A stretch of DNA of 23,655 nucleotides from Minisyncoccota bacterium (GCA_041649895.1 JBAZMG010000006.1:1-23655), one strand, 5' to 3'. Counted from the stretch's first letter, positions 2,470 to 18,841 are shown. Notes: generated by a model not told the origin, from the sequence alone. Translations and numbers: made by a program.

Positions 2470-3102
2470 ATGCTTTCAAACCAAACTTTGCTGATCGTTT
2501 TAATTTTTTTCGGTTATCTTTTGGGTTCGATTCCGTTCGGATATCTTGTTGGAAAAATCAAAAATGTTGACATTAGGAAAAAAGGGAGTGGCGCCACAGG
2601 CGCGACCAACGTCTCCCGAACAGTGGGCTTTAAATATGCGATCTTGGTTGCGGCATTGGATATCGCTAAAGCGGTTCTACCTATATATATCGGGAGCCGT
2701 TTTTTTAATCCAAGCTGGAACGCAGATCCCGGGTGGCAAATGGCCCTAATCTCTATTGCTCCGGTATTAGGTCACATATTTCCAGTCTGGCTAAAATTCA
2801 AGGGAGGTAAGGGCGTGTCTGTTATCTTCGCTTGCATTATTATGGTAATGGGCTGGCAATACTCCTTAGTTCTTTTTGTCTTATGGCTGGCGCTCTTATT
2901 GCTTATAAAAACAATGAGTCTGACAAATATCTTAATTTTCCCGATTTTACCGTTCTTGTTTTGGTTCAGGACTCACTCTTGGGTGTATGTCTGGCTTGGT
3001 GTTTTTTATGTCCTTTTAATTTGGTGGGCGCATCGCGAGAATATAAAACGCATACGACAGGGGACTGAGCCGAAAACAATTCATAACAAAAATAAAGAAT
3101 AA
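2470..3102 (+). CDS. plsY: Glycerol-3-phosphate acyltransferase PlsY (acyl-phosphate dependent)
   Basis: 210-aa polytopic membrane ORF with GSIPFGYLVGK, GSGATGATNVSR and GHIFPVWLKFKGGKGV motifs. Confidence 0.85.
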   Translation: MLSNQTLLIVLIFFGYLLGSIPFGYLVGKIKNVDIRKKGSGATGATNVSRTVGFKYAILVAALDIAKAVLPIYIGSRFFNPSWNADPGWQMALISIAPVLGHIFPVWLKFKGGKGVSVIFACIIMVMGWQYSLVLFVLWLALLLLIKTMSLTNILIFPILPFLFWFRTHSWVYVWLGVFYVLLIWWAHRENIKRIRQGTEPKTIHNKNKE

Positions 3103-3127
3103 TAAAGCACGAATTAACTAATATTTA

Positions 3128-3300
3128 GGGCTTAATCCTTTTACAAATGATTAAGGGCGGAGCCGACGGCTTGATTGTACTCAATCACGGGCGCAGGGTT
3201 GACGAACCCGAGCCGGGCCTGAGGAAATTTTCAACAGAAAATTATCTGAAGGACGAGCCGGGACTTGAGCAAAACTTCAACAGGAGCTTATATGAAGGAA
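3128..3300 (+). repeat. Cluster of GC-rich structured modules (candidate ncRNA or leader) just upstream of the pilin array
   Basis: Hairpins CTTAATC/GATTAAG (3131-3155), AGCC-GAC-GGCT (3161-3171), TGATTG-TACT-CAATCA (3172-3187), GGGTT-GACG-AACCC (3196-3209), AATTTTC-AACA-GAAAATT (3226-3243). Invariant linkers GGGCGGAG and CGAGCCGGGCCTGAG are shared with the 181-247, 18599-18660 and 20213-20277 copies. Confidence 0.6.
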
Positions 3301-3320
3301 TCCTCAAACATTGAAAAACA

Positions 3321-4205
3321 ATGAAAAAAACTATAAAAAAACAATTTGCGTTTACATTAATAGAACTGCTTATCGTTATCGCAATAATCGGAATACTCTC
3401 TGCGTTGATTATCGTGGGAATGAATAATGCAACCCAAAAAGCGACAATCGCCAAAGCGCAAGTATTTTCCAATTCACTCCGTAATTCTTTGATGTCTGGC
3501 TTGTTTGCCGAGTATAAGCTCGATGGCAACGCCAGCGACACGTGGGGGACACACACAGCCGGAACAATCAGCGGCGCATCATCTTATGCGTCCTGTATAC
3601 AAAATACTTGCTATAGTTTCGATAGCGATGATGATTATATTGAACTCGCGGATGTCGCGGATTTAAGAATGATAACCGGAGGGACTATTTCCGTTTGGAT
3701 TTATCCAAAAAGCTACGGAGAGGGCACTCTTGGAAGAATAATTGATAAGTCGTCTTCGGGCGATTCCGGTTTAGGTGGTTATACTTTTAGGAATAGTTCT
3801 CTTAATAGATTATTGTTCGTAATAAATGACGGCACCAACACACTTACTCAACAAAACGTAATAACTTATAATCAATGGCAACTTGTGACAACTACTTTTA
3901 ATGATTCCGGTAGAAAGATATACGTTAACGGAATTGATAAAACGGCATCCGGAGGTAATGAAACAGATCTACCTCCCGACAGTACGGGAATAGTGGTTAG
4001 AATTGGAAACTCCGCATATGGAACAACCAGAACTTTTGACGGATATATTGATGATGTTCAAATATATAATCAAGTAATTCCGACTTCCCAAATCCAACAA
4101 AATTACTACGCGGGACTCAACAAACTTTTTGCCAACAGGGGAGTGGAAATATCTGAATACCAACAATGCTTAACTGAATTATCAAACAATTACGCTCAAC
4201 AGTAA
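3321..4205 (+). CDS. Type IV pilin-like N-terminus + LamG/concanavalin-A-like domain protein (paralog 1 of 9, most divergent)
   Basis: MKKTIKKQFA|FTLIELLIVIAIIGILSALI prepilin-type motif with Glu+5; LamG-type hallmarks (YSFDSDDDYIEL, TISVWIYP, FDGYIDDVQIYN); shared C-terminal tail QNYYAGLNKLFANRGVEISEYQQ. Confidence 0.85.
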   Translation: MKKTIKKQFAFTLIELLIVIAIIGILSALIIVGMNNATQKATIAKAQVFSNSLRNSLMSGLFAEYKLDGNASDTWGTHTAGTISGASSYASCIQNTCYSFDSDDDYIELADVADLRMITGGTISVWIYPKSYGEGTLGRIIDKSSSGDSGLGGYTFRNSSLNRLLFVINDGTNTLTQQNVITYNQWQLVTTTFNDSGRKIYVNGIDKTASGGNETDLPPDSTGIVVRIGNSAYGTTRTFDGYIDDVQIYNQVIPTSQIQQNYYAGLNKLFANRGVEISEYQQCLTELSNNYAQQ

Positions 4206-4232
4206 TGTTTGGGTATTCGATACCCAAACATT
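4204..4232. repeat. Intergenic palindrome type 1 (13-bp arms) upstream of an A-type pilin gene
   Basis: AATGTTTGGGTAT-TCG-ATACCCAAACATT, starting inside the stop codon of paralog 1. Confidence 0.8.
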
Positions 4233-4237
4233 GAAAA

Positions 4238-5176
4238 ATGATGAATAGAAATATAAAAACAAATTTGGCATTTACATTGATAGAACTACTTGTGGTTATC
4301 GCAATCATCGGGATTTTATCTGCATTAATTATCATTGGGATGAGCTCGACAACACAGAAAGCTAGTGTTGCCAAGGCGCAGGTGTTTGCCAATTCTTTGC
4401 GCAATTCATTGATGGCGGATATGGTTTCTGAGTGGAAGCTTGATGGAAACACCAATGATACTTGGGCGGCCTCATTTGCAAACAACGGAACCTGGTGGGG
4501 AACGACCGCGCCGAATACCGTCGCAACCTATGGAACTGCGTCCGAATGCGTTTCCGGACAATGTATGGATTTTGATGGCGTGGATGATATGGTGGACTTT
4601 GGGAGCAACGCTTCTTTATCTATGGGAACAAAAGATCACACAGTCTCTTTATGGGTTAAGTTTGATAATGCGACCGCAACAGACATAGACACATTGGTTA
4701 TCTGTGGAGCAATGACGGGAACAGGGAAAGATGGGTATTGGATTACAAGACTTACCGATAGATTATACTTTTATTTTACTGATGGAGAAGGAGCAAATAC
4801 AAGAATTGCCGGCTATTTATCCGCAGCCGGAACATTAATTGCTAATAATTGGTATCAAATAACCGTAACTATGGATAGGGACGGAAATGTAACGGGATAT
4901 ATAAACGGAACATCGCAAATAAGTTGGGCTATTTCTCCTCAGCCTGGAGACGTACAAAATTCCATAAGCTTTCGAATGGGAGCTTTTACTACATCCCTGT
5001 ATCGTCTCGCCGGTAAAATGGATGAAGTGAGAATTTTTCACGCTATTACGACAATATCTCAAATAGAGCAAAACTACTTCGCGGGACTGAACAAACTTTT
5101 TGCCAACAGGGGAGTGGAAACATCAGAATACCAACAACGCTTAACTGAATTATCAAACAATTACGCACGGGATTAA
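4238..5176 (+). CDS. Pilin-like + LamG-domain protein (paralog 2, subtype A); real start may be the second ATG at 4241
   Basis: M(M)NRNIKTNLA|FTLIELLVVIAIIGILSALI; EWKLDGNTNDTW...CMDFDGVDDMVDFG...TVSLWVKFDNA...GKMDEVRIFHAI; preceded by palindrome 4204-4232. Confidence 0.85.
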   Translation: MMNRNIKTNLAFTLIELLVVIAIIGILSALIIIGMSSTTQKASVAKAQVFANSLRNSLMADMVSEWKLDGNTNDTWAASFANNGTWWGTTAPNTVATYGTASECVSGQCMDFDGVDDMVDFGSNASLSMGTKDHTVSLWVKFDNATATDIDTLVICGAMTGTGKDGYWITRLTDRLYFYFTDGEGANTRIAGYLSAAGTLIANNWYQITVTMDRDGNVTGYINGTSQISWAISPQPGDVQNSISFRMGAFTTSLYRLAGKMDEVRIFHAITTISQIEQNYFAGLNKLFANRGVETSEYQQRLTELSNNYARD

Positions 5177-5206
5177 AATGTTTGGGGGTTAAACCCCCAA
5201 ACATTT
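5176..5206. repeat. Intergenic palindrome type 2 (13-bp arms)
   Basis: AAATGTTTGGGGG-TTAAA-CCCCCAAACATTT. Confidence 0.8.
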
Positions 5207-5213
5207 AAAAACG

Positions 5214-6104
5214 ATGAATAGAAATATAAAAACAAAATTGGCATTTACATTGATTGAGCTACTTGTGGTAATTGCAATCATCGGGATTTTATCCGCTTTG
5301 ATCATTATTGGGATGAGCTCGACAACGCAGAAAGCAAACATTGCAAAATCACAAATATTTGCCAATTCTTTGCGCAATTCATTGATGGGGGACATGGTTT
5401 CGGAGTGGAAGCTTGACGAAGGAGCTGGCGATACAATATCTGATACGTGGGGCAGCAATAATGGAACAAAAGCTGGGGCAACATGGGAAGCAATAACAAC
5501 CAACTGCGTCTACGGCAAGTGCTTATCTTTTGATGGTGATGCTGATAATATAAATTTCGGAAATAAAACTGATTTTAATTTGGCTAGCACAAGCCACACT
5601 ATTTCGGTTTGGTTTAAAACAAGTACGACAACTACTGACCATATAATTAGTCGCTTTAACGGCGGAAGTCCCGGCGCTGGATATGTTATTTTTGTGTCCT
5701 CTGGAAAGGTTTGTTTTTCGGAAAGAGCAGACGGGGGAGACTTTCTTGCCCGCGATTCAGCGCTAACCTACAATGATAATTCTTGGCATTTTGTAACTTA
5801 CACGGTTGATATTTCTTTAAAAACAGGGAGGTTTTGCATTGATGGAACTTTTTTGCCCCTGGATACTTATACTGGAAACTTAATAAATTATAATAATAAT
5901 TTATATATCGGTGGACCACAGGTAGGATACTATTTTACTGGCCTAATAGACGATATACGCATATATGATGCCGCAATGCCAGCTTTCCAAATCAACGAAC
6001 AATATTACACCGGATTGAATAAACTTTTGGCAAACAGGGGAGTGGAAACATCTGAATACGAGCAAAGAATCGTAGAATTAAATTATAATTATGCAGAAAA
6101 TTAA
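5214..6104 (+). CDS. Pilin-like + LamG-domain protein (paralog 3, A-type leader, divergent body)
   Basis: MNRNIKTKLA|FTLIELLVVIAIIGILSALI; CLSFDGDADNINFG...TISVWFK...FTGLIDDIRIYDAAM; preceded by palindrome 5176-5206. Confidence 0.85.
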   Translation: MNRNIKTKLAFTLIELLVVIAIIGILSALIIIGMSSTTQKANIAKSQIFANSLRNSLMGDMVSEWKLDEGAGDTISDTWGSNNGTKAGATWEAITTNCVYGKCLSFDGDADNINFGNKTDFNLASTSHTISVWFKTSTTTTDHIISRFNGGSPGAGYVIFVSSGKVCFSERADGGDFLARDSALTYNDNSWHFVTYTVDISLKTGRFCIDGTFLPLDTYTGNLINYNNNLYIGGPQVGYYFTGLIDDIRIYDAAMPAFQINEQYYTGLNKLLANRGVETSEYEQRIVELNYNYAEN

Positions 6105-7047
6105 AATTAACGCATTTACATTGATAGAACTACTTGTGGTTATTGCAATCATCGGAATTTTATCTGCTTTAATTGTTATCGGGATGAGCTCGACAACGCA
6201 AAAAGCCAGTGTTGCAAAAGCGCAAGTATTTGCGAATTCTCTGCGCAATTCGTTGCTGGCGGATATGGTTTCGGAGTGGAAATTGGATGACGGGACTGGA
6301 AACAGCACCACAAAAGATTCCTGGGCTTCGGCTTTTGCCAATACGGGGACCTTGGGAACAGCGGCAGTAGGGGATGCAAGCGAGCCCACATGGCTAAGTA
6401 CCGGTTGTGTTTCCGGAAACTGTCTTTCGTTTGACGGCGCTGATGATTATGTTGATTTCGGAAATAATGCGTCCCTATCAATGGGAACTAAAGATCATAC
6501 TGTATCACTCTGGGTTAAGTTTGATAATGCAACAGCGCCCGCTCCTAATAATGCGGAAACGCTGGCTCGTTGTGGGGTCCAAGCTGCCGGAGTTGGGCGG
6601 GATGGATATTGGATTTATAGGACTGGGAGTAGTCTATTTTTTTATTTTTCTGATGGTTCGGCGGATAGCATAGGCGGCTCATTATCAGGGTCCGGGACAC
6701 TAATAGCTAACACTTGGTATAACATAGTTGTTGCACTCGATAGAGATATTTCTGCCTATATGTATATAAATGGAGTTAAACAAACAGGCTACTCATTAAA
6801 TATCGTACCACAAAATGGAGACGTACAAAATACATCCTTGTTAATGATTGGGGCAACTTCAGCTGGCTATGGTCGGCTTGACGGTCAAATGGATGAGGTA
6901 AGAATCTTTCACGCTATTACGACAATATCTCAAATAGAGCAGAACTACTTTGCCGGACTGAACAAACTTTTGGCAAACAGGGGAGTGGAAACGTCTGAAT
7001 ATGAGCAAAGAGTCGCGAATTTAACTTCAAACTATGCAAAGAATTAA
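6091..7047 (+). CDS. Pilin-like + LamG-domain protein (paralog 4, subtype B)
   Basis: MQKIKINA|FTLIELLVVIAIIGILSALI; EWKLDDGTGNSTTKDSWAS...CLSFDGADDYVDFG; ATG lies inside the previous gene's NYAEN-stop codons (14-nt overlap). Confidence 0.85.
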   Translation: MQKIKINAFTLIELLVVIAIIGILSALIVIGMSSTTQKASVAKAQVFANSLRNSLLADMVSEWKLDDGTGNSTTKDSWASAFANTGTLGTAAVGDASEPTWLSTGCVSGNCLSFDGADDYVDFGNNASLSMGTKDHTVSLWVKFDNATAPAPNNAETLARCGVQAAGVGRDGYWIYRTGSSLFFYFSDGSADSIGGSLSGSGTLIANTWYNIVVALDRDISAYMYINGVKQTGYSLNIVPQNGDVQNTSLLMIGATSAGYGRLDGQMDEVRIFHAITTISQIEQNYFAGLNKLLANRGVETSEYEQRVANLTSNYAKN

Positions 7048-7978
7048 AATTAACGCATTTACTTTGATAGAACTGTTGGTTGTAATAGCGATCATCGGTA
7101 TTTTATCTGCGTTGATTGTTGTGGGTATGAGCTCGGCGACGCAGAAAGCCAGTGTTGCAAAAGCGCAAGTATTTGCTAATTCTTTGCGGAATTCCTTAAT
7201 GGCGGATATGGTTTCCGAATGGAAATTAGATGACGGAACCGGAAACAGCACAACGAAAGATTCCTGGGCTTCGACTTTTACTAATACCGGGACACTGGGG
7301 ACTGCGACGGTAGGGGATGCAAGCGAGCCCACATGGCTAAGTACTGGTTGCGTTTCTGGAAACTGTCTATCTTTCGATGGAGCTGACGACTATGTTAATT
7401 TTGGCAATAACGCTTCATTGAGTATGGGAACAAAAGATCACACAATATCTTTATGGGTTGAATTTATTAATCCAACGGCACTGCAAGATGAAACAATGAT
7501 TCGCACGGGAGCTGGCGGTAGTGGAGCTGGCTATTGGATTTATAGATTTACCGGAACAAATAAATTAAGGTTTCTTTTTCATGACGGAGTTGGTTCGCAG
7601 GCATCCGGATATTTGTCGGCGGATGGCACATTAGTTGCTGGTATTTGGTATAATATAGCTATAATAATGGATAGGGATTCCAATGCCCAAGCTTATATAA
7701 ACGGGCAAATACAAACCAGTTACCCAATAGTTATATCTGGAAACCAAGGAACTATACAAAATGTTACAAATCTAATGGTTGGAGCGCAAGACGCGTCAAC
7801 ACGACGGCTTACCGGCAAAATGGATGAAGTAAAAATATTTCACGCAATACCGTCAATCTCCCAAATTCAACAAAACTATTACGCCGGACTGAACAAACTT
7901 TTGGCAAAAAGAGGGGTGGAAACATCAGAATATGAGCAAAGAGTCGCGGATTTAATTTCAAACTACGCAAAAGAATAA
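7034..7978 (+). CDS. Pilin-like + LamG-domain protein (paralog 5, subtype B)
   Basis: MQRIKINA|FTLIELLVVIAIIGILSALI; same architecture; 14-nt overlap with paralog 4. Confidence 0.85.
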   Translation: MQRIKINAFTLIELLVVIAIIGILSALIVVGMSSATQKASVAKAQVFANSLRNSLMADMVSEWKLDDGTGNSTTKDSWASTFTNTGTLGTATVGDASEPTWLSTGCVSGNCLSFDGADDYVNFGNNASLSMGTKDHTISLWVEFINPTALQDETMIRTGAGGSGAGYWIYRFTGTNKLRFLFHDGVGSQASGYLSADGTLVAGIWYNIAIIMDRDSNAQAYINGQIQTSYPIVISGNQGTIQNVTNLMVGAQDASTRRLTGKMDEVKIFHAIPSISQIQQNYYAGLNKLLAKRGVETSEYEQRVADLISNYAKE

Positions 7979-8005
7979 TGTTCGGGTATTCGATACCCAG
8001 ACATT
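7977..8005. repeat. Intergenic palindrome type 1 (one mismatch, one G-U)
   Basis: AATGTTCGGGTAT-TCG-ATACCCAGACATT. Confidence 0.75.
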
Positions 8006-8010
8006 GAAAA

Positions 8011-8955
8011 ATGATGAATAGAAATATAAAAACAAATTTGGCATTTACGTTGATTGAGCTATTGGTCGTAATAGCGATTATTGGTATTCTTTCGGCTTTG
8101 ATCGTTATTGGGATGAGCTCGACAACTCAAAAAGCTAGTGTTGCCAAGGGCCAAGTATTTGCTAATTCTTTACGCAATTCGTTAATGTCAGATATGGTCT
8201 CGGAGTGGAAATTGGATGGAAACACTAACGACACTTGGGCGGCCTCGTACGCGAACAACGGAACTTGGTCAGGTCCAACCGCGCCAAACACAGTCGCTAC
8301 TTATGGACCGGCAGCTGAATGCGTTTCCGGACAATGTATGGATTTTGATGGAGTGGACGATTTAGTTGATTTTGGAAATAACGCTTCGCTATCAATGGGA
8401 ACAAAAGATCACACAGTCTCTTTATGGATTAAGTTTGACAATGCAACAGCCCCACAACACGAAGTTTTGATTATTAGTGGCGGCAACATTGTTGCTCCTG
8501 GATATGCTGGTTATGATATTTTAAGATACACCGGAATGAGTCGACTATATGTTGAATTTTCCGATGGCTCGGCAAATAATGTCGGTGCCTATTTATCCGC
8601 ATCGGGAACATTAGTATCTAATATTTGGTATAATATAGTAGTAATTTTTGACAGAGACGGAGTTGCCAAGGCATATATTAACGGATTGTCACAGGCGGGA
8701 ACATTAAATATATCGGTTCAACCGGGCAATGTACAAAATATTTACAACTTAAGGTTGGGGGCGTGGACACCGTCCCAATTTCGTCTTGCTGGTAAAATGG
8801 ATGAAGTGAGAATATTTCACGCGATAACAACACTTTCCCAAATTCAGCAAAACTACTACGCGGGACTGAACAAGCTTTTTGCAAACAGGGGAGTGGAAAC
8901 ATCCGAATATCAACAAAGGATCGTAGAATTAAATTCGAATTATGCAAAGAATTAA
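8011..8955 (+). CDS. Pilin-like + LamG-domain protein (paralog 6, subtype A); start may be 8014
   Basis: M(M)NRNIKTNLA|FTLIELLVVIAIIGILSALI; N-terminal ~150 aa near-identical to paralog 2; preceded by palindrome 7977-8005. Confidence 0.85.
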   Translation: MMNRNIKTNLAFTLIELLVVIAIIGILSALIVIGMSSTTQKASVAKGQVFANSLRNSLMSDMVSEWKLDGNTNDTWAASYANNGTWSGPTAPNTVATYGPAAECVSGQCMDFDGVDDLVDFGNNASLSMGTKDHTVSLWIKFDNATAPQHEVLIISGGNIVAPGYAGYDILRYTGMSRLYVEFSDGSANNVGAYLSASGTLVSNIWYNIVVIFDRDGVAKAYINGLSQAGTLNISVQPGNVQNIYNLRLGAWTPSQFRLAGKMDEVRIFHAITTLSQIQQNYYAGLNKLFANRGVETSEYQQRIVELNSNYAKN

Positions 8956-9895
8956 AATCAACGCATTCACATTAATAGAACTACTTGTGGTTATTGCAAT
9001 CATCGGGATTTTGTCTGCATTAATTATCATTGGGATGAGCTCGACAACACAGAAAGCTAGTGTTGCCAAGGCGCAAGTGTTCGCTAATTCTCTACGTAAT
9101 TCATTGATGTCGGATATGGTTTCGGAGTGGAAGCTTGATGATGGGACAGGAAACAGCACAACGAAAGATTCCTGGGCTTCGACTTTTACAAATACGGGGA
9201 CCTTGGGAACCGCAGCAGTGGGGGATGCAAGCGAGCCCACATGGCTAAGTACTGGTTGCGTTTCCGGAAACTGTCTTTCTTTTGACGGCACCGACGATTA
9301 TGTTGATTTTGGGAGCAATGCGTCTTTATCTATGGGGACTAAAGACCATACTGCGTCATTCTGGGTTAAATTTGATAATGCGGTAGCAATAGAAAATAAT
9401 ACACTGATTAAATGCGGGGCCTTCGGCGCCTCTCTTGGATCAGACGGATACTGGCTTGTTAGATTAAACGGTACAAACAAACTATATTGTTATTTCTCCG
9501 ACGGAGAAACAACAACATTGCTTGGTAATTATTTATCCGCGGATGGTTCTTTGGTTGCCGATACTTGGTACAATATTGTTGTAATGTTCGACAGGAGCGG
9601 AGTGGCTCAAGCATACATAAATGGCGTAATACAATCAGGAACACTAAACATATCATCACAAACAGGAGACGTGCAAAATAGTAGAAGTTTTACTATTGGA
9701 GCCTGGTCAGCAACACTACATCGATCCGCTGGCAAAATGGACGAAGTACGAATATTCCACGCGATTACGACACTTTCTCAAATTCAACAAAACTACTTCG
9801 CAGGACTGAACAAACTTTTGGCTAATGGGGAAGTGGAAACATCAGAATACCAACAACGCTTAACTGAATTATCAAACAATTACGCACGGGATTAA
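8942..9895 (+). CDS. Pilin-like + LamG-domain protein (paralog 7, subtype B N-terminus with the paralog-2 type C-terminus)
   Basis: MQRIKINA|FTLIELL...; the last 64 nt of the CDS plus the downstream hairpin are 100% identical to 5113-5210. Confidence 0.85.
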   Translation: MQRIKINAFTLIELLVVIAIIGILSALIIIGMSSTTQKASVAKAQVFANSLRNSLMSDMVSEWKLDDGTGNSTTKDSWASTFTNTGTLGTAAVGDASEPTWLSTGCVSGNCLSFDGTDDYVDFGSNASLSMGTKDHTASFWVKFDNAVAIENNTLIKCGAFGASLGSDGYWLVRLNGTNKLYCYFSDGETTTLLGNYLSADGSLVADTWYNIVVMFDRSGVAQAYINGVIQSGTLNISSQTGDVQNSRSFTIGAWSATLHRSAGKMDEVRIFHAITTLSQIQQNYFAGLNKLLANGEVETSEYQQRLTELSNNYARD

Positions 9896-9925
9896 AATGT
9901 TTGGGGGTTAAACCCCCAAACATTT
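9895..9925. repeat. Intergenic palindrome type 2 (identical to 5176-5206)
   Basis: AAATGTTTGGGGG-TTAAA-CCCCCAAACATTT. Confidence 0.8.
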
Positions 9926-9931
9926 AAAACA

Positions 9932-10870
9932 ATGAATAGAAATATAAAAACAAAATTGGCATTTACATTGATAGAATTATTGGTCGTGATTGCAATCATC
10001 GGGATACTTTCGGCTTTGATCATTATTGGGATGAGTTCGACGACACAGAAAGCTAGTGTTGCCAAATCGCAGGTGTTTGCCAATTCATTGCGCAATTCTT
10101 TGATGGCGGATATGGTTTCAGAATGGAAATTGGACGGGAATACTAACGATACTTGGGCGTCTTCAAATGCGAACAACGGAACGTGGTCGGGACCAACCGC
10201 GCCGAATGCCGTCGCTACTTACGGGACGGCAGCCGAATGCGTCTCCGGACAATGTATGGATTTTGACGGTGTGGATGATGTAGTTGATTTTGGAAATAAC
10301 GCTTCGTTATCAATGGGAACAAAAGATCACACAGTCTCTATTTGGGTTAAATTCGATAACGCATCACCCCCAACAGAAGAAGAAACATTAATTTTTTGCG
10401 GCGGAACAGTGGCCGCGACAGAAGGCTATTGGATCAGGAGACAAATTGGAGGAACAGGAATTTATTTTTGTTTTAACGATGGCTCGGCAACAAGGGCTAA
10501 CGGTGCTTTATCAGCGAACGGAACTTTAATTAATAATATTTGGTATAATATAGTAATAACAATGGACAGAGATTCTAATGCCCAAGCATATATAAATGGA
10601 CAAAAACAAACTGGTTATGTTGTTAGTCTCTCCTCTTGGCAAACCGACATACAGAATACTTATAATTTCCAAATTGGTGGATTTGGAGCTGTTTATACAA
10701 TGGCGGGAAAAATTGATGAAGTAAGAATATTCAATGCGATAACAACACTTTCTCAAATTCAACAAAATTACTTTGCAGGACTGAACAAACTTTTTACCAA
10801 CAAGGGAGTGGAACCGTCTGAATACCAAAAAGAGGTCACGAATTTAATTTCAAACCATGCAAAGAATTAA
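9932..10870 (+). CDS. Pilin-like + LamG-domain protein (paralog 8, subtype A)
   Basis: MNRNIKTKLA|FTLIELLVVIAIIGILSALI; preceded by palindrome 9895-9925. Confidence 0.85.
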   Translation: MNRNIKTKLAFTLIELLVVIAIIGILSALIIIGMSSTTQKASVAKSQVFANSLRNSLMADMVSEWKLDGNTNDTWASSNANNGTWSGPTAPNAVATYGTAAECVSGQCMDFDGVDDVVDFGNNASLSMGTKDHTVSIWVKFDNASPPTEEETLIFCGGTVAATEGYWIRRQIGGTGIYFCFNDGSATRANGALSANGTLINNIWYNIVITMDRDSNAQAYINGQKQTGYVVSLSSWQTDIQNTYNFQIGGFGAVYTMAGKIDEVRIFNAITTLSQIQQNYFAGLNKLFTNKGVEPSEYQKEVTNLISNHAKN

Positions 10871-11816
10871 CAAAGCATTTACATTAATTGAGCTATTGGT
10901 TGTGATAGCGATTATTGGTATTCTTTCGGCTTTGATCGTTATTGGGATGAGCTCAACAACACAGAAAGCCAGTGTTGCCAAGGCGCAAGTGTTTGCGAAT
11001 TCTCTGCGCAATTCGTTGCTGGCGGATATGGTTTCGGAGTGGAAATTGGATGACGGGACTGGAAACAGCACCACAAAAGATTCGTGGGCTTCGGTTTATG
11101 CCAATACGGGAACATTGGGAACAGCGGCGGTGGGGGACGCGAGCGAGCCAACATGGCTAAGTACCGGTTGCGTTTCCGGAAACTGCCTTGATTTTGACGG
11201 CGCTGACGATTATGTTGATTTTGGAAGCAATGCGTCTTTATCTATGGGGACTAAAGACCATATTGCGTCATTCTGGGTTAAATTTGATAATGCAGTGGCG
11301 GGCGCGCAACCCGAAACGCTAATAGTTTGCGGTTCAGTTACCGGTGGGGCGACTGGAGACGATGGTTATTGGATTGTACGCTATCAAGGAACAAGCAAAA
11401 TAAGAGGATATTTTTCTGATGGTTCGGCGGCATATATCGGCGGAGATTTATCTGCTAATAGTGTTTTTGTCGCTAATACTTGGTATAACATAGTAACAAC
11501 TTTTGATAGAGATGGAGTTGTTCAGGCATATGTTAATGGATTAAAACAAACGGGTTATTCAATAAACATTGCTCCTCAACAAGGAGATGTACAAAATTAT
11601 ATGAATTTGCGAATTGGAGCCTATTCGGCAACCGGACACCGTCTCGATGGTCAAATGGATGAGGTAAGAATCTTTCACGCCATAACAACGCTGTCTCAAA
11701 TAAAGCAAAACTATTACGCAGGACTGAACAAACTTTTTGCCAAAAACTCCCTAAATAGGGTAGAATATGAGTATAGGATGGCGGAATTACAAACTTCATC
11801 TTTAGCAAACAAATGA
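10857..11816 (+). CDS. Pilin-like + LamG-domain protein (paralog 9, subtype B, divergent C-terminal tail)
   Basis: MQRINKA|FTLIELLVVIAIIGILSALI; 14-nt overlap with paralog 8; its TGA stop overlaps the next gene's ATG (ATGA at 11813-11816). Confidence 0.85.
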   Translation: MQRINKAFTLIELLVVIAIIGILSALIVIGMSSTTQKASVAKAQVFANSLRNSLLADMVSEWKLDDGTGNSTTKDSWASVYANTGTLGTAAVGDASEPTWLSTGCVSGNCLDFDGADDYVDFGSNASLSMGTKDHIASFWVKFDNAVAGAQPETLIVCGSVTGGATGDDGYWIVRYQGTSKIRGYFSDGSAAYIGGDLSANSVFVANTWYNIVTTFDRDGVVQAYVNGLKQTGYSINIAPQQGDVQNYMNLRIGAYSATGHRLDGQMDEVRIFHAITTLSQIKQNYYAGLNKLFAKNSLNRVEYEYRMAELQTSSLANK

Positions 11817-12370
11817 TGCCTTATTTATTAGCTATTGCCTTATTCTTTCTTCCGGCTTACGTGGCGAATACCACGCCGCCTTTGGCAAACCGATTTAATA
11901 TTCTAAACAGCTTGTATAAGCCGATAGACAACAACAAGACAATAAACGGAATGCCGATCTTAGGCACACACAAAAGCTGGCGGGGATTGGTTTTGGAAAT
12001 CATATTCTGTACTGTCCTAACAGGAGCGATGTTTATTCTAAACAAGCAGTTCGGGTGGGGGATTTATGAATCACTCGGATTCGCCTACGAAAAGATCAAT
12101 GGCTTTGTTTTCGGTCTGATCTTTGGCGTTGGTATAGTTTTTGGCGATCTACTCTTCGCCTTTATCAAGCGCAGACTGCGCCTTAGGCCCGGGTTTCCTT
12201 TTATCCCGTTCGATCAGATCAACTATGTTATCGGTGCCTTTATTTTCACCGAACCAATCGCGCATTTGGGAATAAAGTTTTGGATCATTCTTGCCGGAAT
12301 AACCCTGATTATACACATTGTTTTCAATCGTCTTGGGTATAATATGGGGTTGCACAAAGCAAAATGGTAA
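11813..12370 (+). CDS. carS: CDP-archaeol synthase family protein (CarS / DUF46-like CDP-alcohol-forming cytidylyltransferase)
   Basis: 185-aa membrane ORF. By recollection of archaeal CarS it aligns block by block: FLPAYVANTTPPL, PIDNNKTINGMPILGTHKSWRGL, FGDLLFAFIKRRLRLRPGFPFIPFDQINYVIGA, C-terminal HIVFNRLGYNMGLHKAKW. Confidence 0.8.
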   Translation: MMPYLLAIALFFLPAYVANTTPPLANRFNILNSLYKPIDNNKTINGMPILGTHKSWRGLVLEIIFCTVLTGAMFILNKQFGWGIYESLGFAYEKINGFVFGLIFGVGIVFGDLLFAFIKRRLRLRPGFPFIPFDQINYVIGAFIFTEPIAHLGIKFWIILAGITLIIHIVFNRLGYNMGLHKAKW

Positions 12371-12391
12371 TATAAGATTAAAAAGCAACGC

Positions 12392-12413
12392 CCCTACCAT
12401 ATATATGGTAGGG
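12392..12413. terminator. Perfect 22-bp palindrome after carS (possible terminator, no T-tract on + strand)
   Basis: CCCTACCATAT/ATATGGTAGGG. Confidence 0.3.
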
Positions 12414-12471
12414 CATAAAAACCGCCTTCGCCCCGAGCTAACCAAAAGCTACGGCGAGGCGCAGAAATATT

Positions 12472-13155
12472 ATGCAAAATCTATTTAATATAATTTCCGC
12501 GAGTGCCGAGCGAACATTATCAATGTTAACGCAAAATTTAGTCACAAACGCCGCAAATTTGATCGGTGCTGTTTTGGTATTTATTATCGGCTGGCTTATC
12601 GCGAAGAAAATAAAGGGATTCTTCACCGACCTTTTAAACAAGATCCGCCTGAACCAAATGGCGAAATCTCTGGGATGGGAACCGTTTTTTGACAAATATG
12701 ACACTCGCCTCAATGTCCCAAAATTTTTCGGAGCGATCATTGAATTATTTTTTGTTTTACTGTTTTTAACAATTTCTTTTGACATCTTGGGCCTAGCGCA
12801 AGTAAACGCATTCCTTTTGACAATCATCAATTATTTCCCGAACATCTTTATTTCAATGCTGATCTTTATCTTCGCGGTGTTTGTTGCCGACTTTTCAAAA
12901 AAGATCGTGCTCGTCAGCTTGAACAAAGAAAAAATAACCTATTCGGGAATATTGGGCGACAGCATTGCCTGGATCACGTGGATTATGGCGATACTCGCCA
13001 TCCTGTATCAATTAAATATAGTCCCGACAATAGTGCTGACTATATTTATTGGATTCGTCGCCTTGATTGTTATTGTTTTTGGATTGGCATTCGGATTGGG
13101 CGGAAGGGAATTTGCTAAAAAAATATTAGAAGACTTGGAGAACCGGGCACGATAA
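12472..13155 (+). CDS. Membrane protein with conserved TM-helix repeats (MscS-N-terminal-like); function unknown
   Basis: 227-aa ORF with 4-5 hydrophobic segments; NLIGAVLVFIIGWLIAKKI-type helix followed by a basic linker, repeated. Confidence 0.45.
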   Translation: MQNLFNIISASAERTLSMLTQNLVTNAANLIGAVLVFIIGWLIAKKIKGFFTDLLNKIRLNQMAKSLGWEPFFDKYDTRLNVPKFFGAIIELFFVLLFLTISFDILGLAQVNAFLLTIINYFPNIFISMLIFIFAVFVADFSKKIVLVSLNKEKITYSGILGDSIAWITWIMAILAILYQLNIVPTIVLTIFIGFVALIVIVFGLAFGLGGREFAKKILEDLENRAR

Positions 13156-13189
13156 TAAAATAGAGGAAAAGCATGGGCGATTCCTCTTT

Positions 13190-15001
13190 TTGATATTTAT
13201 GGATACAATAACGTACAAAGAACTACAAAAAATGATCCTCTTTTCCGGGGAGAGGGTTAATAGAGATAAAGAACAAATAAACAAGATCAATGTATTTCCG
13301 GTTCCGGACCAGGACACGGGCTCTAATTTGGCTGCGACATTAAAGGGAATAAAAGAAGCGATTGAAGGCAAAGAATTCGGCTCAATGGAAGAATTCGCGA
13401 ACACCGTTTTGGACAGCGCCCTGACTGCGGCGCAAGGCAATGCCGGAATTATTTACACCGGATTTTTGGCCGGGTTTTTGCCCGCGATAAGCGACGTGGA
13501 AGAAGTTGATGCCAAAAAGCTTGGCAATGCTTTTAAGCTCGGATACGAGCGAGCAAAAGACTCAATCCAAAATCCGAAAGAGGGAACTATTTTAGATGTT
13601 GTCCACGCTTTTGCCGAAACTTTTAACGAGTTATCAGAAGAAAAAGAAGATATCATCGAAATATTTTACGAATCTTTCGGGAAGGCCAACCAGGCCCTGC
13701 TTGATACGCCGAATAAAATGGAATTACTGAAAAAGGCCGGCGTGGTTGATGCCGGGGGATTGGGATTTTTAATGATCCTTGAAACCTACCTTGATACGCT
13801 AAAGGAACAGACCGTGGAAAAGGTCGCGGCAAAACCCTTCCTTGCTCCGGGCGAAGAATCAGCCACGAGAAAGTTCGTCCAAATTCTATCAAACCGATAC
13901 GAAGTGGTCGCCCTGTTGGCAAATCCGAACTTAAAAGAAAAAGAGATCAGGGACAAACTGAAAAATCTGGGCAATTGCCTTGATATTATCCAAATCGCGA
14001 ACCGAATAAAGATACACATCCACACCGATGACCCTTATGAGACCAGAGATATTATTTCCAATATGGGTACGGTCGAAAATCTGAGAATTCAGGATATGGC
14101 GAGGGAAGTGGTGGGAGAAGAGTCGATGGAAAACGTTTCCATCGGCATTGTAATCGATGAACGCGCGGGATTGAGCCAAAAAATAATCCAGCATTATGAT
14201 ATTGAAGTAATCCCGTTCCGTATCACCTGGCCGGAAGAACAAAACTTGCCCGGGCACAACGTGTGCGAAAAAATAAAAGAAGCGAAAAAGAAGGGATTGA
14301 ACACCAAACCGAAGATCTCTTCCATTTCTCCGGAATTCTTTATGGAATCGTACAAAAAACAATTGGAAAAATTTGAAACTATTATCTGCATTGTCAGTAG
14401 CTCCAAACTTTCCGACAACTACAATTCCGCCCTGAAAGCGCGGGAAATGCTAAATTGGAATATGAGAGAAAGGGTTTTTGTCGTTGATTCGAAAAACATC
14501 AGCGCCGGACAATCCCTTGTGGTTTTGGAAGCGATCGAGCTCATCCGGGAACAGAGAAAAATAAAAGAAATAAAAGAACGCTTGGAAGTGGCGATTCCTC
14601 AGATCAATCTGCTCGGCATTTTAAAAAACGCGGCGTGGTGGAAAAAAGACAATCCGACCGCGAAGTTTTGGTTTACCAAAGAAAAACCGCAAGATTCTTT
14701 TTGGCTCATAGAAACAAAAGATGGAAAAATCAATCCAACGGAAAAAGTAAGATCAAATGATTTCGCCGACGTCTTGTTCAAAAAAATAGAACGGGCCGCG
14801 CGAAGAGACTTGCGAGAAGGTAAAAAGATCAGAGTGGTTATCGCGCACGCCGACAGCCTGGATCAAGCGGAAAAGCTCAAAGAAAAATTAAAGACCACGA
14901 AACGGGCTGATATTTCCTTTATCAGTATCACAGATCCGGTCACAAGCATAAACGCTTGCCCGGACAGCCTTATAGTGGCGTGGATCGTTCACCCGAGTTA
15001 A
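13190..15001 (+). CDS. DAK2-domain protein of the YloV/FakA (fatty acid kinase) type with a C-terminal DegV-like domain; start may be 13199
   Basis: NVFPVPDQDTGSNLAATL and KKAGVVDAGGLGFLMILE (Dak2/YloV hallmarks). The C-terminal half (from VSIGIVIDERAGL) is paralogous to the two downstream DegV genes. Confidence 0.75.
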   Translation: MIFMDTITYKELQKMILFSGERVNRDKEQINKINVFPVPDQDTGSNLAATLKGIKEAIEGKEFGSMEEFANTVLDSALTAAQGNAGIIYTGFLAGFLPAISDVEEVDAKKLGNAFKLGYERAKDSIQNPKEGTILDVVHAFAETFNELSEEKEDIIEIFYESFGKANQALLDTPNKMELLKKAGVVDAGGLGFLMILETYLDTLKEQTVEKVAAKPFLAPGEESATRKFVQILSNRYEVVALLANPNLKEKEIRDKLKNLGNCLDIIQIANRIKIHIHTDDPYETRDIISNMGTVENLRIQDMAREVVGEESMENVSIGIVIDERAGLSQKIIQHYDIEVIPFRITWPEEQNLPGHNVCEKIKEAKKKGLNTKPKISSISPEFFMESYKKQLEKFETIICIVSSSKLSDNYNSALKAREMLNWNMRERVFVVDSKNISAGQSLVVLEAIELIREQRKIKEIKERLEVAIPQINLLGILKNAAWWKKDNPTAKFWFTKEKPQDSFWLIETKDGKINPTEKVRSNDFADVLFKKIERAARRDLREGKKIRVVIAHADSLDQAEKLKEKLKTTKRADISFISITDPVTSINACPDSLIVAWIVHPS

Positions 15002-15051
15002 ACAATTTTGCTTTGCAAAATTAGCGCATAGCGCTGTTTAACCGGGTAAAA

Positions 15052-15086
15052 TAAGAATAAAGAATCAGGAATCAAGAATTAAGAAT
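15052..15086 (+). repeat. Five in-phase heptamer repeats NARGAAT upstream of the first degV gene
   Basis: TAAGAAT AAAGAAT CAGGAAT CAAGAAT TAAGAAT. Confidence 0.7.
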
Positions 15087-15132
15087 AAAAACAGGGAACG
15101 ATTCCAATTCATAAAAATTAGATATTAAATCA

Positions 15133-16026
15133 ATGGAAACAGAAAACCAAAACAAAAAATTAATTGGCATCGTGGCCGACGAGGCCGTTGACCTGCCTGA
15201 TTCAATTGTACAAGAAAACGAGATATCGCTCGTAAAATTCAAATTGGATTTCGAAGAACTAAAGGATGTTCCCGGCAATGTTTATGAAAAAATGCGCGAG
15301 GGAGAGAGAAGGGGACTCAAGACCATTGCCAAGACATCACAACCATCCATTAATGACTTTTTAGGCGCGTACCGGGAAAAACTGAAAAGATTTGAAGAGA
15401 TAATTTGCTTCACCATATCGGGAAAACTATCAGGAACTTTTAACTCCGCTTTACAGGCAACAAAATTTTTACCAAAAGAAGCCCAAGATAAAATTCATCT
15501 GGTTGATACATTGAACGCAACCGGGGGAGAAGGTCTTGTAGCTTTGTGGGCAGCCGATATGATCAAAGAAGCAAAATTGAAAGCCGGAGAGATCGCGGAA
15601 ACAATACGGAAAAATGTTTCCAATTTCAAACTGATCGGGATCTATGGAACACCGAAATGGCTTGAAGCGAGCGGACGCTTGCCAAAATTTTTGCCGGCAC
15701 CCTTGAGGCAAGCGGAAAAAATGAACCTCAAGCCTATTTTTGCCCTGAAAAACGGAAAGATTACTTTTATAAGCATTCGAAAAAACTTAAATGGCATCGC
15801 GAATACTCTATTCCAAGAGTTTGAAAAGCAAACTCTGGCGGCGCGCAATCAAGGAAAAAAGATCAGAGCCGCGATCACTCACGGCGACAACCCGGCTGGA
15901 GCGGAAGAACTGAAAAATTTGGTCTCAAGTTTGGAAAATGTAAAAGTGGAGTTTATAAGCCTGGCTTGTTTTCCGATCGGAGGACATGTCGGCCCGGAAT
16001 CATTAGTGCTTTCCTGGCAACAATAA
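15133..16026 (+). CDS. DegV family fatty-acid-binding protein (FakB-like)
   Basis: IGIVADEAVDLP, TSQPSINDFLGAY, ISGKLSGTFNSALQA; 297 aa. Confidence 0.85.
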   Translation: METENQNKKLIGIVADEAVDLPDSIVQENEISLVKFKLDFEELKDVPGNVYEKMREGERRGLKTIAKTSQPSINDFLGAYREKLKRFEEIICFTISGKLSGTFNSALQATKFLPKEAQDKIHLVDTLNATGGEGLVALWAADMIKEAKLKAGEIAETIRKNVSNFKLIGIYGTPKWLEASGRLPKFLPAPLRQAEKMNLKPIFALKNGKITFISIRKNLNGIANTLFQEFEKQTLAARNQGKKIRAAITHGDNPAGAEELKNLVSSLENVKVEFISLACFPIGGHVGPESLVLSWQQ

Positions 16027-16096
16027 CCCCCACCTTTTTAAAAAAGATGGGGGCAAAAAAGAATAAAAATAAAGAAACACTAATTGCATAAAATAT

Positions 16097-16972
16097 ATGA
16101 GTATCAAAATCATCGTAGGCGAAAGCGCCCCCACGACTCCGGATATTGTGGCAAAGTACGGTTTTGCGACCGTACCGTTTAAGATCGATTGGCCCGAGTT
16201 CGACACCATTAAGGGCAATACGCTTTTTCAAAAAATGCGCGAAGCGAAAAAGCAAGGCATCAAAACCACCCCCAAAACTTCTCAGCCGTCTATAGGCATA
16301 TACAAAAAAGCTTTTGACGAAGCCCTTGTCGACAACGAATATATTCTCGCGATCACTATCAGCTCCGGCATCTCGGGAACTTACAACTCCGCCATTCAAG
16401 CAAAAAAGATGTTCAGTGAAGACGCGCAAAAAAAGATCTATGTTTTTGATACATTTAACGCCGATGCCGCGGAAAGCTTGTTTGCCATTAAAGCGGGGGA
16501 TATGGCGGTGCAAGAAAAGACCATTGATGAAGTAATGGCAAAATTGGAAGAATTAAAACCATCAGCCAAACTGTACGGATTTTTGGACGACCCTTATTGG
16601 CTTGAGGCCGGAGGCAGGATCAGCCATGCCGTAGCCGTAATAATGGCGCAAATGCAAAAGATCGGAATGCGGCCTCTTTTGTCAATGAAAGACGGGGTTG
16701 TTAAGCCGGCGAATCTGAAAATGCAAGCCAAGGACACGGCCGATGCTTTGTTTAAACAGCTGGAAAGCATTGTAAAAGATCCTCTCGCGGACGGGAAAAA
16801 GGTAAGCGTTGCCATAAGCCACGCGGACAATCCCGGAGAGGCCGAAAACTTGAAAAAAATGATCGAAGAAAAATATCCTAGCGCTAAAATAGAATTCGTG
16901 ACCGAGACCGGTCCGGTGATCGGCGCGCACATCGGACCCGGATCATTAATTTGCTGCTGTTTAATAGATTAA
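16097..16972 (+). CDS. DegV family fatty-acid-binding protein (FakB-like), second paralog
   Basis: TSQPSIGIYKKAF, ISSGISGTYNSAIQA, GPVIGAHIGPGS; 291 aa. Confidence 0.85.
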   Translation: MSIKIIVGESAPTTPDIVAKYGFATVPFKIDWPEFDTIKGNTLFQKMREAKKQGIKTTPKTSQPSIGIYKKAFDEALVDNEYILAITISSGISGTYNSAIQAKKMFSEDAQKKIYVFDTFNADAAESLFAIKAGDMAVQEKTIDEVMAKLEELKPSAKLYGFLDDPYWLEAGGRISHAVAVIMAQMQKIGMRPLLSMKDGVVKPANLKMQAKDTADALFKQLESIVKDPLADGKKVSVAISHADNPGEAENLKKMIEEKYPSAKIEFVTETGPVIGAHIGPGSLICCCLID

Positions 16973-17039
16973 CCCTGTTAAATACTTTTGCCAAGCAAAA
17001 GTAAAATTTAAAAGAATCTTTAAATTTTATTTAACAGGG
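16973..17039 (+). other. 67-nt three-way-junction-like inverted-repeat structure directly after the degV stop codon
   Basis: Outer stem CCCTGTTAAAT/ATTTAACAGGG encloses hairpins CTTTTGC-CAA-GCAAAAG and AAAATTTAAA(A)G-AAT-CTTTAAATTTT. Confidence 0.6.
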
Positions 17040-17105
17040 CAAGCCCGGTTAAAAGCACTTACTGTAAACATTATTGATAAATATTAATTATAATAAATCC
17101 AACCC

Positions 17106-17810
17106 ATGATCTTTAATTTAATTGCGATCGCTTTAATTTCTTACATTCTGGGATCAATTCCTTTTTCTCTGGTTTTTGTCAAATTGTTTACGAAAAAAAA
17201 CCTGCACGAACTGGGATCAAAAAACGCAGGAGCATTAAATACCCTGAGGATCGTTGCCAAAGAAAAAGGGAAGGTTTGGGGCGTCTTATCTTTTCTTTTG
17301 GTCGGAATTCTGGACGCAAGCAAGGGTGTTTTCGCCGTCTTAATCGCCAAAAGTTATTTTTTCCCGATTCTTTTGCAAACATCAGCGGAAATAACAATGC
17401 CCTGGCCGACCATTGTCGCCATTATCGCGTTCTTTGCCGTACTCGGACACAATTATTCCATTTTCTTAAAATTCAAGGGTGGAAGAGGGGCTGCCACCTT
17501 ATTTGGTATTCTTTTGTATTTAAACGTTACGGCAGCTCTCGGTATTCTCGGCTTTGTTCTTTTGTTTATTTTTTTAGGAGAACTGCTGGCCGGACACAAA
17601 TTAAACAAAAAATTCGTAAGCGCCGCGATATCAAACCAGATCATTGGCCGGCTTTTGGGAGAAATTGTCGGGCTGTTCTGGATGTACACTATTGATCCTA
17701 TGGTGTTTTATATCGCCGCTTTGCCGATTGTATTAATTGTTTTCGCGCACAAAGACAGGCTTGACGAACAAATTAAAAAGATCAAAGATAAAACCTATCT
17801 AAAAGATTAA
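17106..17810 (+). CDS. plsY: PlsY-family acyltransferase paralog 2 (divergent)
   Basis: LGSIPFSLVFVKL, GSKNAGALNTLR, LDASKG, GHNYSIFLKFKGGRGAAT; 234 aa. Confidence 0.7.
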   Translation: MIFNLIAIALISYILGSIPFSLVFVKLFTKKNLHELGSKNAGALNTLRIVAKEKGKVWGVLSFLLVGILDASKGVFAVLIAKSYFFPILLQTSAEITMPWPTIVAIIAFFAVLGHNYSIFLKFKGGRGAATLFGILLYLNVTAALGILGFVLLFIFLGELLAGHKLNKKFVSAAISNQIIGRLLGEIVGLFWMYTIDPMVFYIAALPIVLIVFAHKDRLDEQIKKIKDKTYLKD

Positions 17811-17814
17811 ACAA

Positions 17815-18816: not shown

Positions 18817-18841
18817 CAGCAAATTTTGCTGACGCAAAATA

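Follow-up and report, generated by a model that had tools for sequence, protein, structure and literature searches.

A 98-nt block shared by tandem pilin-LamG genes of a Minisyncoccota bacterium as a probable recombination tract between paralogs

Introduction

The window analysed here, a stretch of 23,655 nt from a Minisyncoccota bacterium (GCA_041649895.1, JBAZMG010000006.1), contains nine related genes in tandem, two of which share a block of 98 nt at their 3′ ends without a single difference. The original prediction, made from the sequence alone, had taken this block as a trace of mosaic gene conversion within the array. The locus thereby raises the question how ends can be identical in genes whose bodies differ. 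In our assessment the block is very probably a recent recombination tract between tandem paralogs, by which conserved ends were exchanged and cores re-paired whole. Overall, the locus is best described as a case of ordinary homologous recombination within an unusually large adhesin repertoire.

Architecture of the pilin-LamG array

The array comprises nine intact open reading frames on the + strand (3321-11816), which code for proteins of 294-319 amino acids (Table 1). All nine genes scored above the Pfam cut-offs for PF07963 (class III signal peptide/prepilin motif) and for PF13385 (LamG3). The eight junctions between them consist of four 14-nt overlaps and four spacers of 32-37 nt that contain a hairpin.

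Table 1. Coordinates of the genes, palindromes and exact blocks in the window and of the RAYT-like locus elsewhere in the genome.
Feature	Position	Strand	Remarks
Gene 1	3321..4205	+	prepilin N-terminus and LamG3 domain, divergent core
REP-like palindrome	4205..4231	.	gene 1/2 junction; other inner variant
Gene 2	4238..5176	+	pilin-LamG, short-linker type
62-nt exact block	4319..4380	+	pilin helix of gene 2; = 9014-9075 in gene 7; five-gene register
98-nt exact block	5113..5210	+	last 64 nt of gene 2, REP-like hairpin and spacer; exact match
REP-like palindrome	5178..5204	.	12-bp stem, 3-nt loop; 14-bp stem with flanks; -15.1 kcal/mol, z -5.3
Gene 3	5214..6104	+	pilin-LamG, divergent core
41-nt continuation of the tract	5214..5254	+	in gene 3; = 9932-9972 in gene 8; exact match
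Gene 4	6091..7047	+	pilin-LamG, long-linker type; overlaps gene 3 by 14 nt
92-nt exact block	6229..6320	+	in gene 4; = 10992-11083 in gene 9; five-gene register
Gene 5	7034..7978	+	pilin-LamG, long-linker type
REP-like palindrome	7978..8004	.	gene 5/6 junction; two mismatched pairs
Gene 6	8011..8955	+	pilin-LamG, short-linker type
50-nt exact block	8071..8120	+	in gene 6; = 10905-10954 in gene 9
Gene 7	8942..9895	+	pilin-LamG, long-linker type; 5′ block and tail of gene-2 type
98-nt block, second copy	9832..9929	+	gene 7 end; exact match; probable recipient
REP-like palindrome	9897..9923	.	gene 7/8 junction; variant as at 5178..5204
Gene 8	9932..10870	+	pilin-LamG, short-linker type
Gene 9	10857..11816	+	pilin-LamG, long-linker type; nearest paralog shifts along its length (6, 4, 7)
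Part of gene 9 common to gene 7	11226..11293	+	37 + 30 nt exact
RAYT-like Y1 gene with four 27-nt palindromes	L002:1038-2388 (G000:C23:7925-9275)		

The predicted structure of the gene 2 product, a model of moderate confidence (pLDDT 67, helices below 55), shows helices at residues 14-60 and 273-311 around a beta-sandwich, with two helices on the N-terminal and two on the C-terminal side. In a fold search the sandwich matched ConA-like domains at 12-21% identity, and the top matches were lectin-like subdomains of clostridial neurotoxin complexes and an arabinanase domain, again at 12-21% identity. A toxin assignment was rejected because these matches reflect the shared ConA-like fold. Judged by the model, the conserved, recombining helices probably form the pilus-assembly part of the protein, and the variable sandwich probably binds glycans, by analogy to PilC of Streptococcus sanguinis, for which such binding has been shown. 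Glycan binding and attachment to a host would then be the function of the pilin-LamG proteins.

The array interrupts a lipid-related neighbourhood (2470-3102 and 11813-18483) with three PlsY-family genes, a DAK2-DegV gene and DegV-like open reading frames; a CarS-like gene overlaps gene 9. Further downstream lies a gene of the 23S rRNA-intervening-sequence (four-helix) family (PF05635; 19073-19421), seemingly frameshifted after about 25 codons at an A-rich run. Direct repeats of 55-75 nt occur at 18831, 18935 and 20094, and dispersed GC-rich repeats were found by tRNA-like genes and just upstream of the array (123-369, 3190-3226, 18600-18636 and 20206-20285). The region 660-1950, free of open reading frames, has recurrent palindromes as well as 11-nt motifs that are repeated in either orientation.

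The identical block and its extension

Sequence comparison within the window confirmed that 5113-5210 and 9832-9929 match exactly and that the match is maximal at 98 nt. The block consists of the final 64 nt of gene 2 (or 7), a REP-like hairpin and the spacer. The near-identity that had been predicted to continue into the next gene is real: past the block, one extra A and one substitution are followed by 41 further identical bases (5214-5254 and 9932-9972), and the whole tract of 142 nt with two differences reaches into the start of gene 3 (or 8). Genes 2 and 7 both terminate in EYQQRLTELSNNYARD, as had been noted, and they do represent different subtypes, the linker being short in gene 2 and long in gene 7. 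The statement that the paralogs differ at many synonymous sites likewise held, with only 41-65% of the codons for shared residues being identical between paralog pairs.

The original prediction had also cited two short blocks between genes 2 and 6. These exist (35 nt at 4544/8317 and 33 nt at 4622/8395) but are weak evidence on their own, because no two paralogs are closer than genes 2 and 6 (75% nucleotide identity) and both blocks fall within the range of the longest block in simulations without recombination, which averages 38 nt. Stronger blocks were found at 6229/10992 (92 nt), 4319/9014 (62 nt) and 8071/10905 (50 nt), in addition to blocks of 48 nt between genes 2 and 6 and of 44 and 41 nt between genes 5 and 7. 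The blocks of 98, 92, 62 and 41 nt all lie on one diagonal that relates genes 2-4 to genes 7-9, an excess in this five-gene register with a permutation p of 0.014-0.039 when any register is allowed, in a test chosen after the data had been seen. Since they share one register, the longest three blocks may derive from a single misaligned event; one long misaligned pairing, a duplication with later replacement of bodies, or separate conversions would explain the register equally well. As to direction, gene 7 departs from the tail common to genes 1 and 2 just upstream of the tract, which makes gene 2 the likelier donor and gene 7 the probable recipient of the 98-nt block. More generally, we infer both the direction and the rate of exchange.

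The duplication with body replacement deserves separate consideration as a variant of the preferred explanation that is compatible with it. Here, a copy of genes 2-4 would have been placed at a distance of five genes, after which double crossovers in the conserved ends, with other arrays or DNA taken up from relatives as donors, replaced the bodies of either genes 7 and 8 or genes 2 and 3; the identical blocks would then be remnants of one duplication. The common register of the four blocks agrees with this scenario, as do the transfer of a whole body in a relative, the presence of ComEC-family genes, and letters in a second strain that match no paralog of the window (see below). Many blocks are in other registers, however (2/6, 5/7, 6/9, 7/9 and 2/4), the assembly contains no donor body, and the register test was post hoc. 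We regard this scenario as a real possibility with somewhat less than an even chance.

Statistical tests for recombination

As a null model without recombination, 300 alignments were simulated on a single tree, each of four segments and two classes of codon position having rates of its own. The coding sequences contain 22 exact pairwise blocks of at least 30 nt (simulated mean 2.5, maximum 9), seven of at least 40 nt (mean 0.4, maximum 3) and three of at least 60 nt (mean 0.01, maximum 1). None of the 300 simulations reached 92 nt, and four reached 61 nt. Whether all sites, third positions or silent sites were used, and with nine genes as well as with seven, the PHI test returned p = 0.0005, the lowest value that 2000 permutations allow. 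When the trees of the four segments were tested against each other, the AU test rejected 11 of 12 combinations at 0.05, the exception being the pilin segment on the linker tree (p 0.063). The ancestry of the genes thus is mosaic, and the predicted segmental recombination between paralogs is supported by the PHI test, the mutually rejecting segment trees and the excess over the simulations. In contrast, Sawyer's test on the 70 strictly silent sites identified no globally significant pair (best global p 0.34); its all-site version was left aside, being confounded by the conserved ends. Runs of identical silent codons gave p values of 0.001 for the pairs 4/9 and 7/9 and of 0.0055 for 2/7, uncorrected for 36 pairs.

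Within segments, the PHI signal was strong in the pilin segment (p 0.0005; third positions 0.0015) and the C-terminal segment (p 0.001; third positions 0.044), marginal in the linker (p 0.015; third positions 0.38) and absent from the core (p 0.14; third positions 0.49). The suggestion that variable cores are shuffled between conserved ends is supported indirectly, by exact blocks of genes 2 and 7 that flank unlike bodies, by the missing signal within cores and by an 804-nt body found in two contexts in a relative.

Purifying selection alone, by way of constraint on the protein, codon bias and a hairpin that functions as RNA, could in principle keep the ends identical. At codon positions 1 and 2 the pilin segment indeed evolves about 11 times more slowly than the core, and the stem of the hairpin covaries. 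Third positions at the ends are fast, however (relative speeds 1.1 and 2.8), and the rate-matched simulations never reached the observed blocks. Furthermore, the identity is specific to pairs of genes and changes partner along a gene, and differences in rate do not produce conflicting trees. Selection as the sole cause is thus very improbable.

Assembly check and strain variation

Parts of the window were found in the contigs of three sequencing runs in Logan (X1, X2 and X3), of which X3, with a small share, was left out. X1 is a landfill metagenome according to its record and may be the source sample, and hence constitutes an independent assembly but not an independent sample. The eight contig pieces listed for it are identical to the window. 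Of their 14 listed inner ends, 11 coincide with 30-mers present more than once in the genome, compared to a background of 7% over the whole array; one contig stops at 9861, which is exactly 30 nt inside the gene-7 copy of the block. As the contigs break at the repeats, the repeats are branch points in a separate assembly graph.

This bears on the possibility, raised with the original prediction, that a collapsed or homogenised repeat created the identity. The repeats of 62, 98 and 92 nt are interleaved, and the order of bodies and junctions depends on spanning reads. Nevertheless, the k = 31 contigs of X1 break at the repeats, and the listed flanks on either side agree with the window in every position, so the block is not a collapse. 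Seven of the nine proteins were also on record letter for letter on a longer contig of 32.8 kb, genes 2 and 6 being unmatched with the start codon used. Contigs alone cannot phase bodies to junctions, but both bodies lie between identical ends whatever the order of the bodies. An assembly artefact is thus the least probable of the explanations considered, with hardly any likelihood.

A cluster look-up yielded a second allele for none of the seven pilins. In X2, which stems from another study, one contig of depth 7, anchored on the downstream gene, covers 11116-12200 with 50 differences, 24 of them listed. Of these, 23 fall in 11150-11263 (20%) and one at 11804; with the 26 unlisted ones counted in, the 937 nt after 11263 contain at most 27 differences (at most 2.9%). 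At 11227-11249, all seven differing letters agree with genes 6 and 8 where gene 9 of the window agrees with gene 7; the positional allele in X2 has letters of gene 6/8 type over part of the stretch that gene 9 has in common with gene 7 (11226..11293). Five of the 23 letters have no counterpart in any of the nine paralogs, so that ordinary strain divergence or outside donors contribute. Nor do the X2 letters at gene 9 agree with any one member of the 14-gene subfamily in the source genome. The contig fits a mosaic allele of gene 9, as far as one contig of depth 7 can indicate. Over 3000-3867 and 5617-5901, further pieces of X2 are identical to the window; much of genes 4-8 lacks cover in X2 and X3, which are uninformative there. 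A search for syntenic arrays in metagenomes via the downstream gene identified 21 loci at 41-58% identity, none of them with an array.

The pilin-LamG family in the source genome and its relatives

The source genome (G000; 959 kb in 95 contigs, 82% complete) contains 73 pilin-LamG family genes in 23 runs on 17 contigs, which make up 6.7% of its DNA. The size of the genome, its gene content and named relatives of the RAYT-like gene described below place the lineage in the Patescibacteria. Of the family genes, 68 have the prepilin start found in all nine genes of the window, and the junctions of the family fall into a few stereotyped types, with overlapping reading frames at 23 of 50 junctions in the genome and four of eight in the window. 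Among the 62 full-length genes retained by a length and frame filter, no two cores are more than 62% identical. An identical donor core thus is missing from the assembly, in which 10 of the 23 arrays lie near contig ends, a feature that bears on the donor search.

The exchanges are located in the gene ends, and the cores are intact. The midpoints of the 89 exact blocks of at least 30 nt fall in 5′ ends (47), 3′ ends (18), intergenic regions (12), linkers (11) and, in a single case, a core. The exchange site therefore lies outside the core in 88 of 89 blocks, and it is the junction instead of the centre of the reading frame. Of the 32 blocks of at least 40 nt, 27 were found within arrays (147 gene pairs) and five between arrays (2481 pairs; 2628 pairs in total). 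Silent sites show local homogenisation as well: in a subfamily of 14 genes that includes genes 2 and 4-9, silent identity is higher within arrays at the two ends (p 0.003 and 0.0004), with no such excess in the cores (p 0.51). The longest block of the genome (103 nt) spans an overlap junction without hairpin. Genes for RecA and for ComEC-family proteins are present.

At E ≤ 1e-30, the family was detected in 24 of the 41 genomes searched. Six genomes of two other genera contain 15-54 family matches (19-54 in five of them and 15 in the sixth). In 20 regions sampled from six relatives, exact blocks of at least 50 nt occur in five genomes; G001 had no such block in the four genes sampled. The clearest case is G008, which has a junction block of 265 nt and in which one pilin-LamG body of 804 nt is identical at two loci on different contigs (L065:13474, second gene of its run, and L069:6227, first gene of its run) with different 5′ and 3′ ends. 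The long blocks (at least 50 nt) of this genome occur predominantly between arrays (101, compared to 9 within), indicating that the within-array bias of the source genome is not general.

The REP-like palindrome and the RAYT-like gene

The hairpin in the block had been regarded as a local intergenic feature. It is indeed part of the block, but it is not local, as it represents a 27-nt palindrome with 48-49 copies, mostly intergenic, in the genome (0-2 in three shuffles). Its outer stem is fixed and its inner stem variable. The inner pairs of the 30 distinct copies are complementary in 81 of 90 cases, compared to a mean of 35 after shuffling, and the stem thus covaries. Within 60 nt after the stop codon of a pilin-LamG gene lie 25 of the 48 copies, and 20 end 8-10 nt before the start codon of a family member. 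Most of this junction placement can stem from one ancestral insertion that was copied along with the genes; G001 holds the palindrome in the same junction slot. Seven of the 14 inner variants at pilin junctions recur at unrelated loci, which suggests exchange with the dispersed pool. Roles as terminator and promoter were rejected: none of the four junction hairpins is listed as a terminator in a consensus scan, and promoter-like sites are less frequent than in shuffled sequences (18 compared to 24.7). A second dispersed family of imperfect palindromes was observed in the window (12425-12465) and on contigs C2, C3, C5, C8, C18, C19, C24 and C25 of G000 (31 fuzzy matches); it directly precedes the REP-like hairpin at six pilin junctions.

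The same palindrome brackets a single gene for a HuH/Y1 protein of 249 amino acids on contig C23 (G000:C23:8100-8846) with four copies, two of them directly at the gene ends. The protein carries the HuH motif NHFH and the class 2 Y---NP motif YLHFNP (for the motif definitions see PMC6006769). This layout recurs in G005, G019 and L056, in the latter with one copy within the gene. The closest relatives of this gene, at 69%, 67% and, in a named Patescibacteria record, 53% identity, likewise lie between copies of this palindrome. The four loci at 53-100% identity carry 3-6 copies each and 16 more distant loci carry none, several of which have palindromes of their own. A GTAG/GTGG tag within 6 nt of the hairpin foot was found for 2 of 47 copies, and the protein scored below the curated cut-offs of NF047646 (34.4 bits, cut-off 80) and PF01797 (22.2, cut-off 23); for these reasons the elements are termed REP-like and RAYT-like. 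On the evidence of their sequences, palindrome and gene appear to work like a REPtron. A second RAYT-like gene (G000:C12:5072-9511) is split in two by a 3.6-kb insert with a transposase-like and an 852-aa open reading frame.

These features invite the explanation that the RAYT-like HUH nuclease starts or directs the exchange of pilin-lectin cassettes by nicking single-stranded DNA close to the hairpins of the junctions. The accumulation of hairpins after family stop codons and just before family start codons, in a family that makes up so small a share of the genome, would agree with such triggering, as would the bracketing of the gene by the same palindrome in all four loci and the recurrence of junction variants elsewhere, by which the junction copies join the repeat traffic. 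Moreover, in the array on C2 a 92-nt block begins inside the 3′ arm of hairpins that differ in their inner variants. On the other hand, in four relatives of 92-99% completeness with 31-54 family matches (G003, G008, G011 and G023) no match to the hairpin or to a Y1 transposase was detected, and all four still show exact blocks, longer ones in G008. Conversely, the genus with hairpins and the closest RAYT-like proteins has only two strong family matches per genome. Among 41 genomes, five contain the exact palindrome pattern, and in G001 and G013 it is present without a match to this RAYT-like protein. In the source genome itself only 8 of the 32 blocks of at least 40 nt touch a hairpin or lie within 30 nt of one, and the longest block is located at a hairpin-free junction. 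Triggering by the nuclease is thus unlikely. The notion that the hairpin is a required hotspot found no support, either from the hairpin-free relatives or from the block positions, and was rejected. Because relatives without the hairpin or the RAYT-like gene share the patchwork, the hairpin is probably a passenger in recombination. A more far-reaching version, in which the genus co-opted a REP/RAYT pair of non-GTAG type as an adhesin shuffler and the domesticated HUH nuclease nicks palindromes in a fixed slot between the pilin-lectin genes, seeds recombination and re-deals about 70 intact cores among pilin ends compatible with assembly, appears a little less likely still. If true, it would amount to an integron-like cassette system without tyrosine recombinase and to the long-sought benefit of RAYT/REP for the host.

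Other mobile functions were considered as well. An integron was rejected, as the sole full tyrosine recombinase is most similar to XerD/XerC and reaches 91.5 bits with TIGR02249 (cut-off 265), and an attC site after every cassette is incompatible with the overlapping junctions (four of eight in the window, 23 of 50 in the genome), which have no spacer. A diversity-generating retroelement was rejected because no template/variable repeat pair was found near either of the two reverse transcriptase genes: blastn with the surroundings of the gene on C28 found only pilin paralog ends among the matches listed, and with those of the gene on C29 it found nothing. The contig G000:C29:1-6700 contains a group II intron-like reverse transcriptase, a transposase and sugar-modifying genes of a different style, and is perhaps a contaminant. 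The stand-alone reverse transcriptase gene on C28 is located 600 nt upstream of a lone pilin-LamG gene (G000:C28:2333-4872), and the XerC/D-like recombinase gene (G000:C37:6358-10376) has a pilin-LamG array on one side and a hairpin copy on the other.

Proposed mechanism and significance

Each gene would accordingly code for a modular type IV pilin, in which the conserved prepilin helix and the C-terminal helices enclose a highly variable LamG/ConA-like core. The junction of about 350 nt, made up of a conserved 3′ end, the spacer and the next 5′ end, is presumably the only DNA of the paralogs alike enough to pair. Homologous pairing between paralogs, probably dependent on RecA, may then occur out of register and either copy patches of the ends from one paralog to another or swap whole bodies between two ends. 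As an outcome, the assembly parts would stay alike, and the cores (at most 62% identity) would be re-paired as intact units. The REP-like repeat would have entered the junction in an ancestor of the genus and now be carried along.

A genome of less than 1 Mb that devotes 6.7% of its DNA to about 70 lectin-like pilins, no two of whose cores exceed 62% identity, offers a concrete candidate, open to testing, for the means by which Patescibacteria recognise surface glycans on their hosts and keep track of them. The arrays also illustrate how a large repertoire can stay compatible with one pilus machine. Finally, the combination of a REP-like repeat in a fixed junction slot with a cognate RAYT-like gene permits a direct test of the effect of RAYT/REP on the recombination of host genes.

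Comparison with known systems

In Neisseria, the pilin paralogs pilE/pilS are known to recombine at conserved stretches on either side of variable ones, with silent, 5′-truncated donor copies serving one expression locus. In contrast, the array has nine full-length genes, each with its own start and signal peptide, and its variable cores move whole. Antigenic variation of the Neisseria type was rejected, as neither silent 5′-truncated cassettes nor a single expression locus are evident.

The minor type IV pilin PilC of S. sanguinis, a protein of 52.8 kDa with ConA-like and Ig-like modules and demonstrated glycan binding (PMC9934059), resembles the array genes, by that account, in combining a class III signal peptide with a concanavalin A-like domain. 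It differs from the array proteins, which have about 310 residues, dozens of copies and conserved helices after the lectin-like domain and for which glycan binding is predicted. REPtrons combine a TnpA-REP/RAYT gene with cognate REP palindromes (PMC6006769; PMC8266576). In the classification of PMC6006769, subclasses 2.1 and 2.3 were reported to lack REPs. The single-copy HuH/Y1 gene with its class 2 Y---NP motif and its bracketing palindromes, which recur in spacers and co-vary with the gene, fits the REPtrons described there; the missing GTAG-type tag, the variable inner stem, the score below the cut-off and the location of about half of the copies at the gene ends of one family set it apart from them.

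Within the Patescibacteria, clusters of genes with pilin signal peptides were reported for the Paceibacteria family 32-520/UBA5633, parasites of Methanospirillum, and proposed to function in host attachment (PMC9763046). They share these signal peptides with the array genes; the main text of that study mentions neither LamG nor lectin nor concanavalin. No description of these arrays, this repeat or REP/RAYT pairs in the CPR was found in a literature search that covered few subscription journals and no supplements, those of PMC9763046 and PMC10936435 being places where pilin-LamG genes may be listed.

The closest described case is the lpl family of Staphylococcus aureus, tandem paralogs coding for surface proteins that interact with the host, in which homologous recombination at a conserved stretch reshuffles the genes (Tsuru and Kobayashi, 2008; PMC2568036). 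The unit in lpl consists of the 3′ end of one reading frame, the spacer and the 5′ end of the next, and unequal crossing-over as well as horizontal transfer yield apparent conversions (PMC2568036). Both systems have recombining tandem paralogs, conflicting segment trees and a conserved stretch for exchange. However, the conserved site of lpl is central and the unit across genes variable, whereas here the junction is conserved and the central core variable, and the present family has 73 members in 23 runs. The mechanism of recombination is already known; it is its setting, the size of the repertoire, that is striking.
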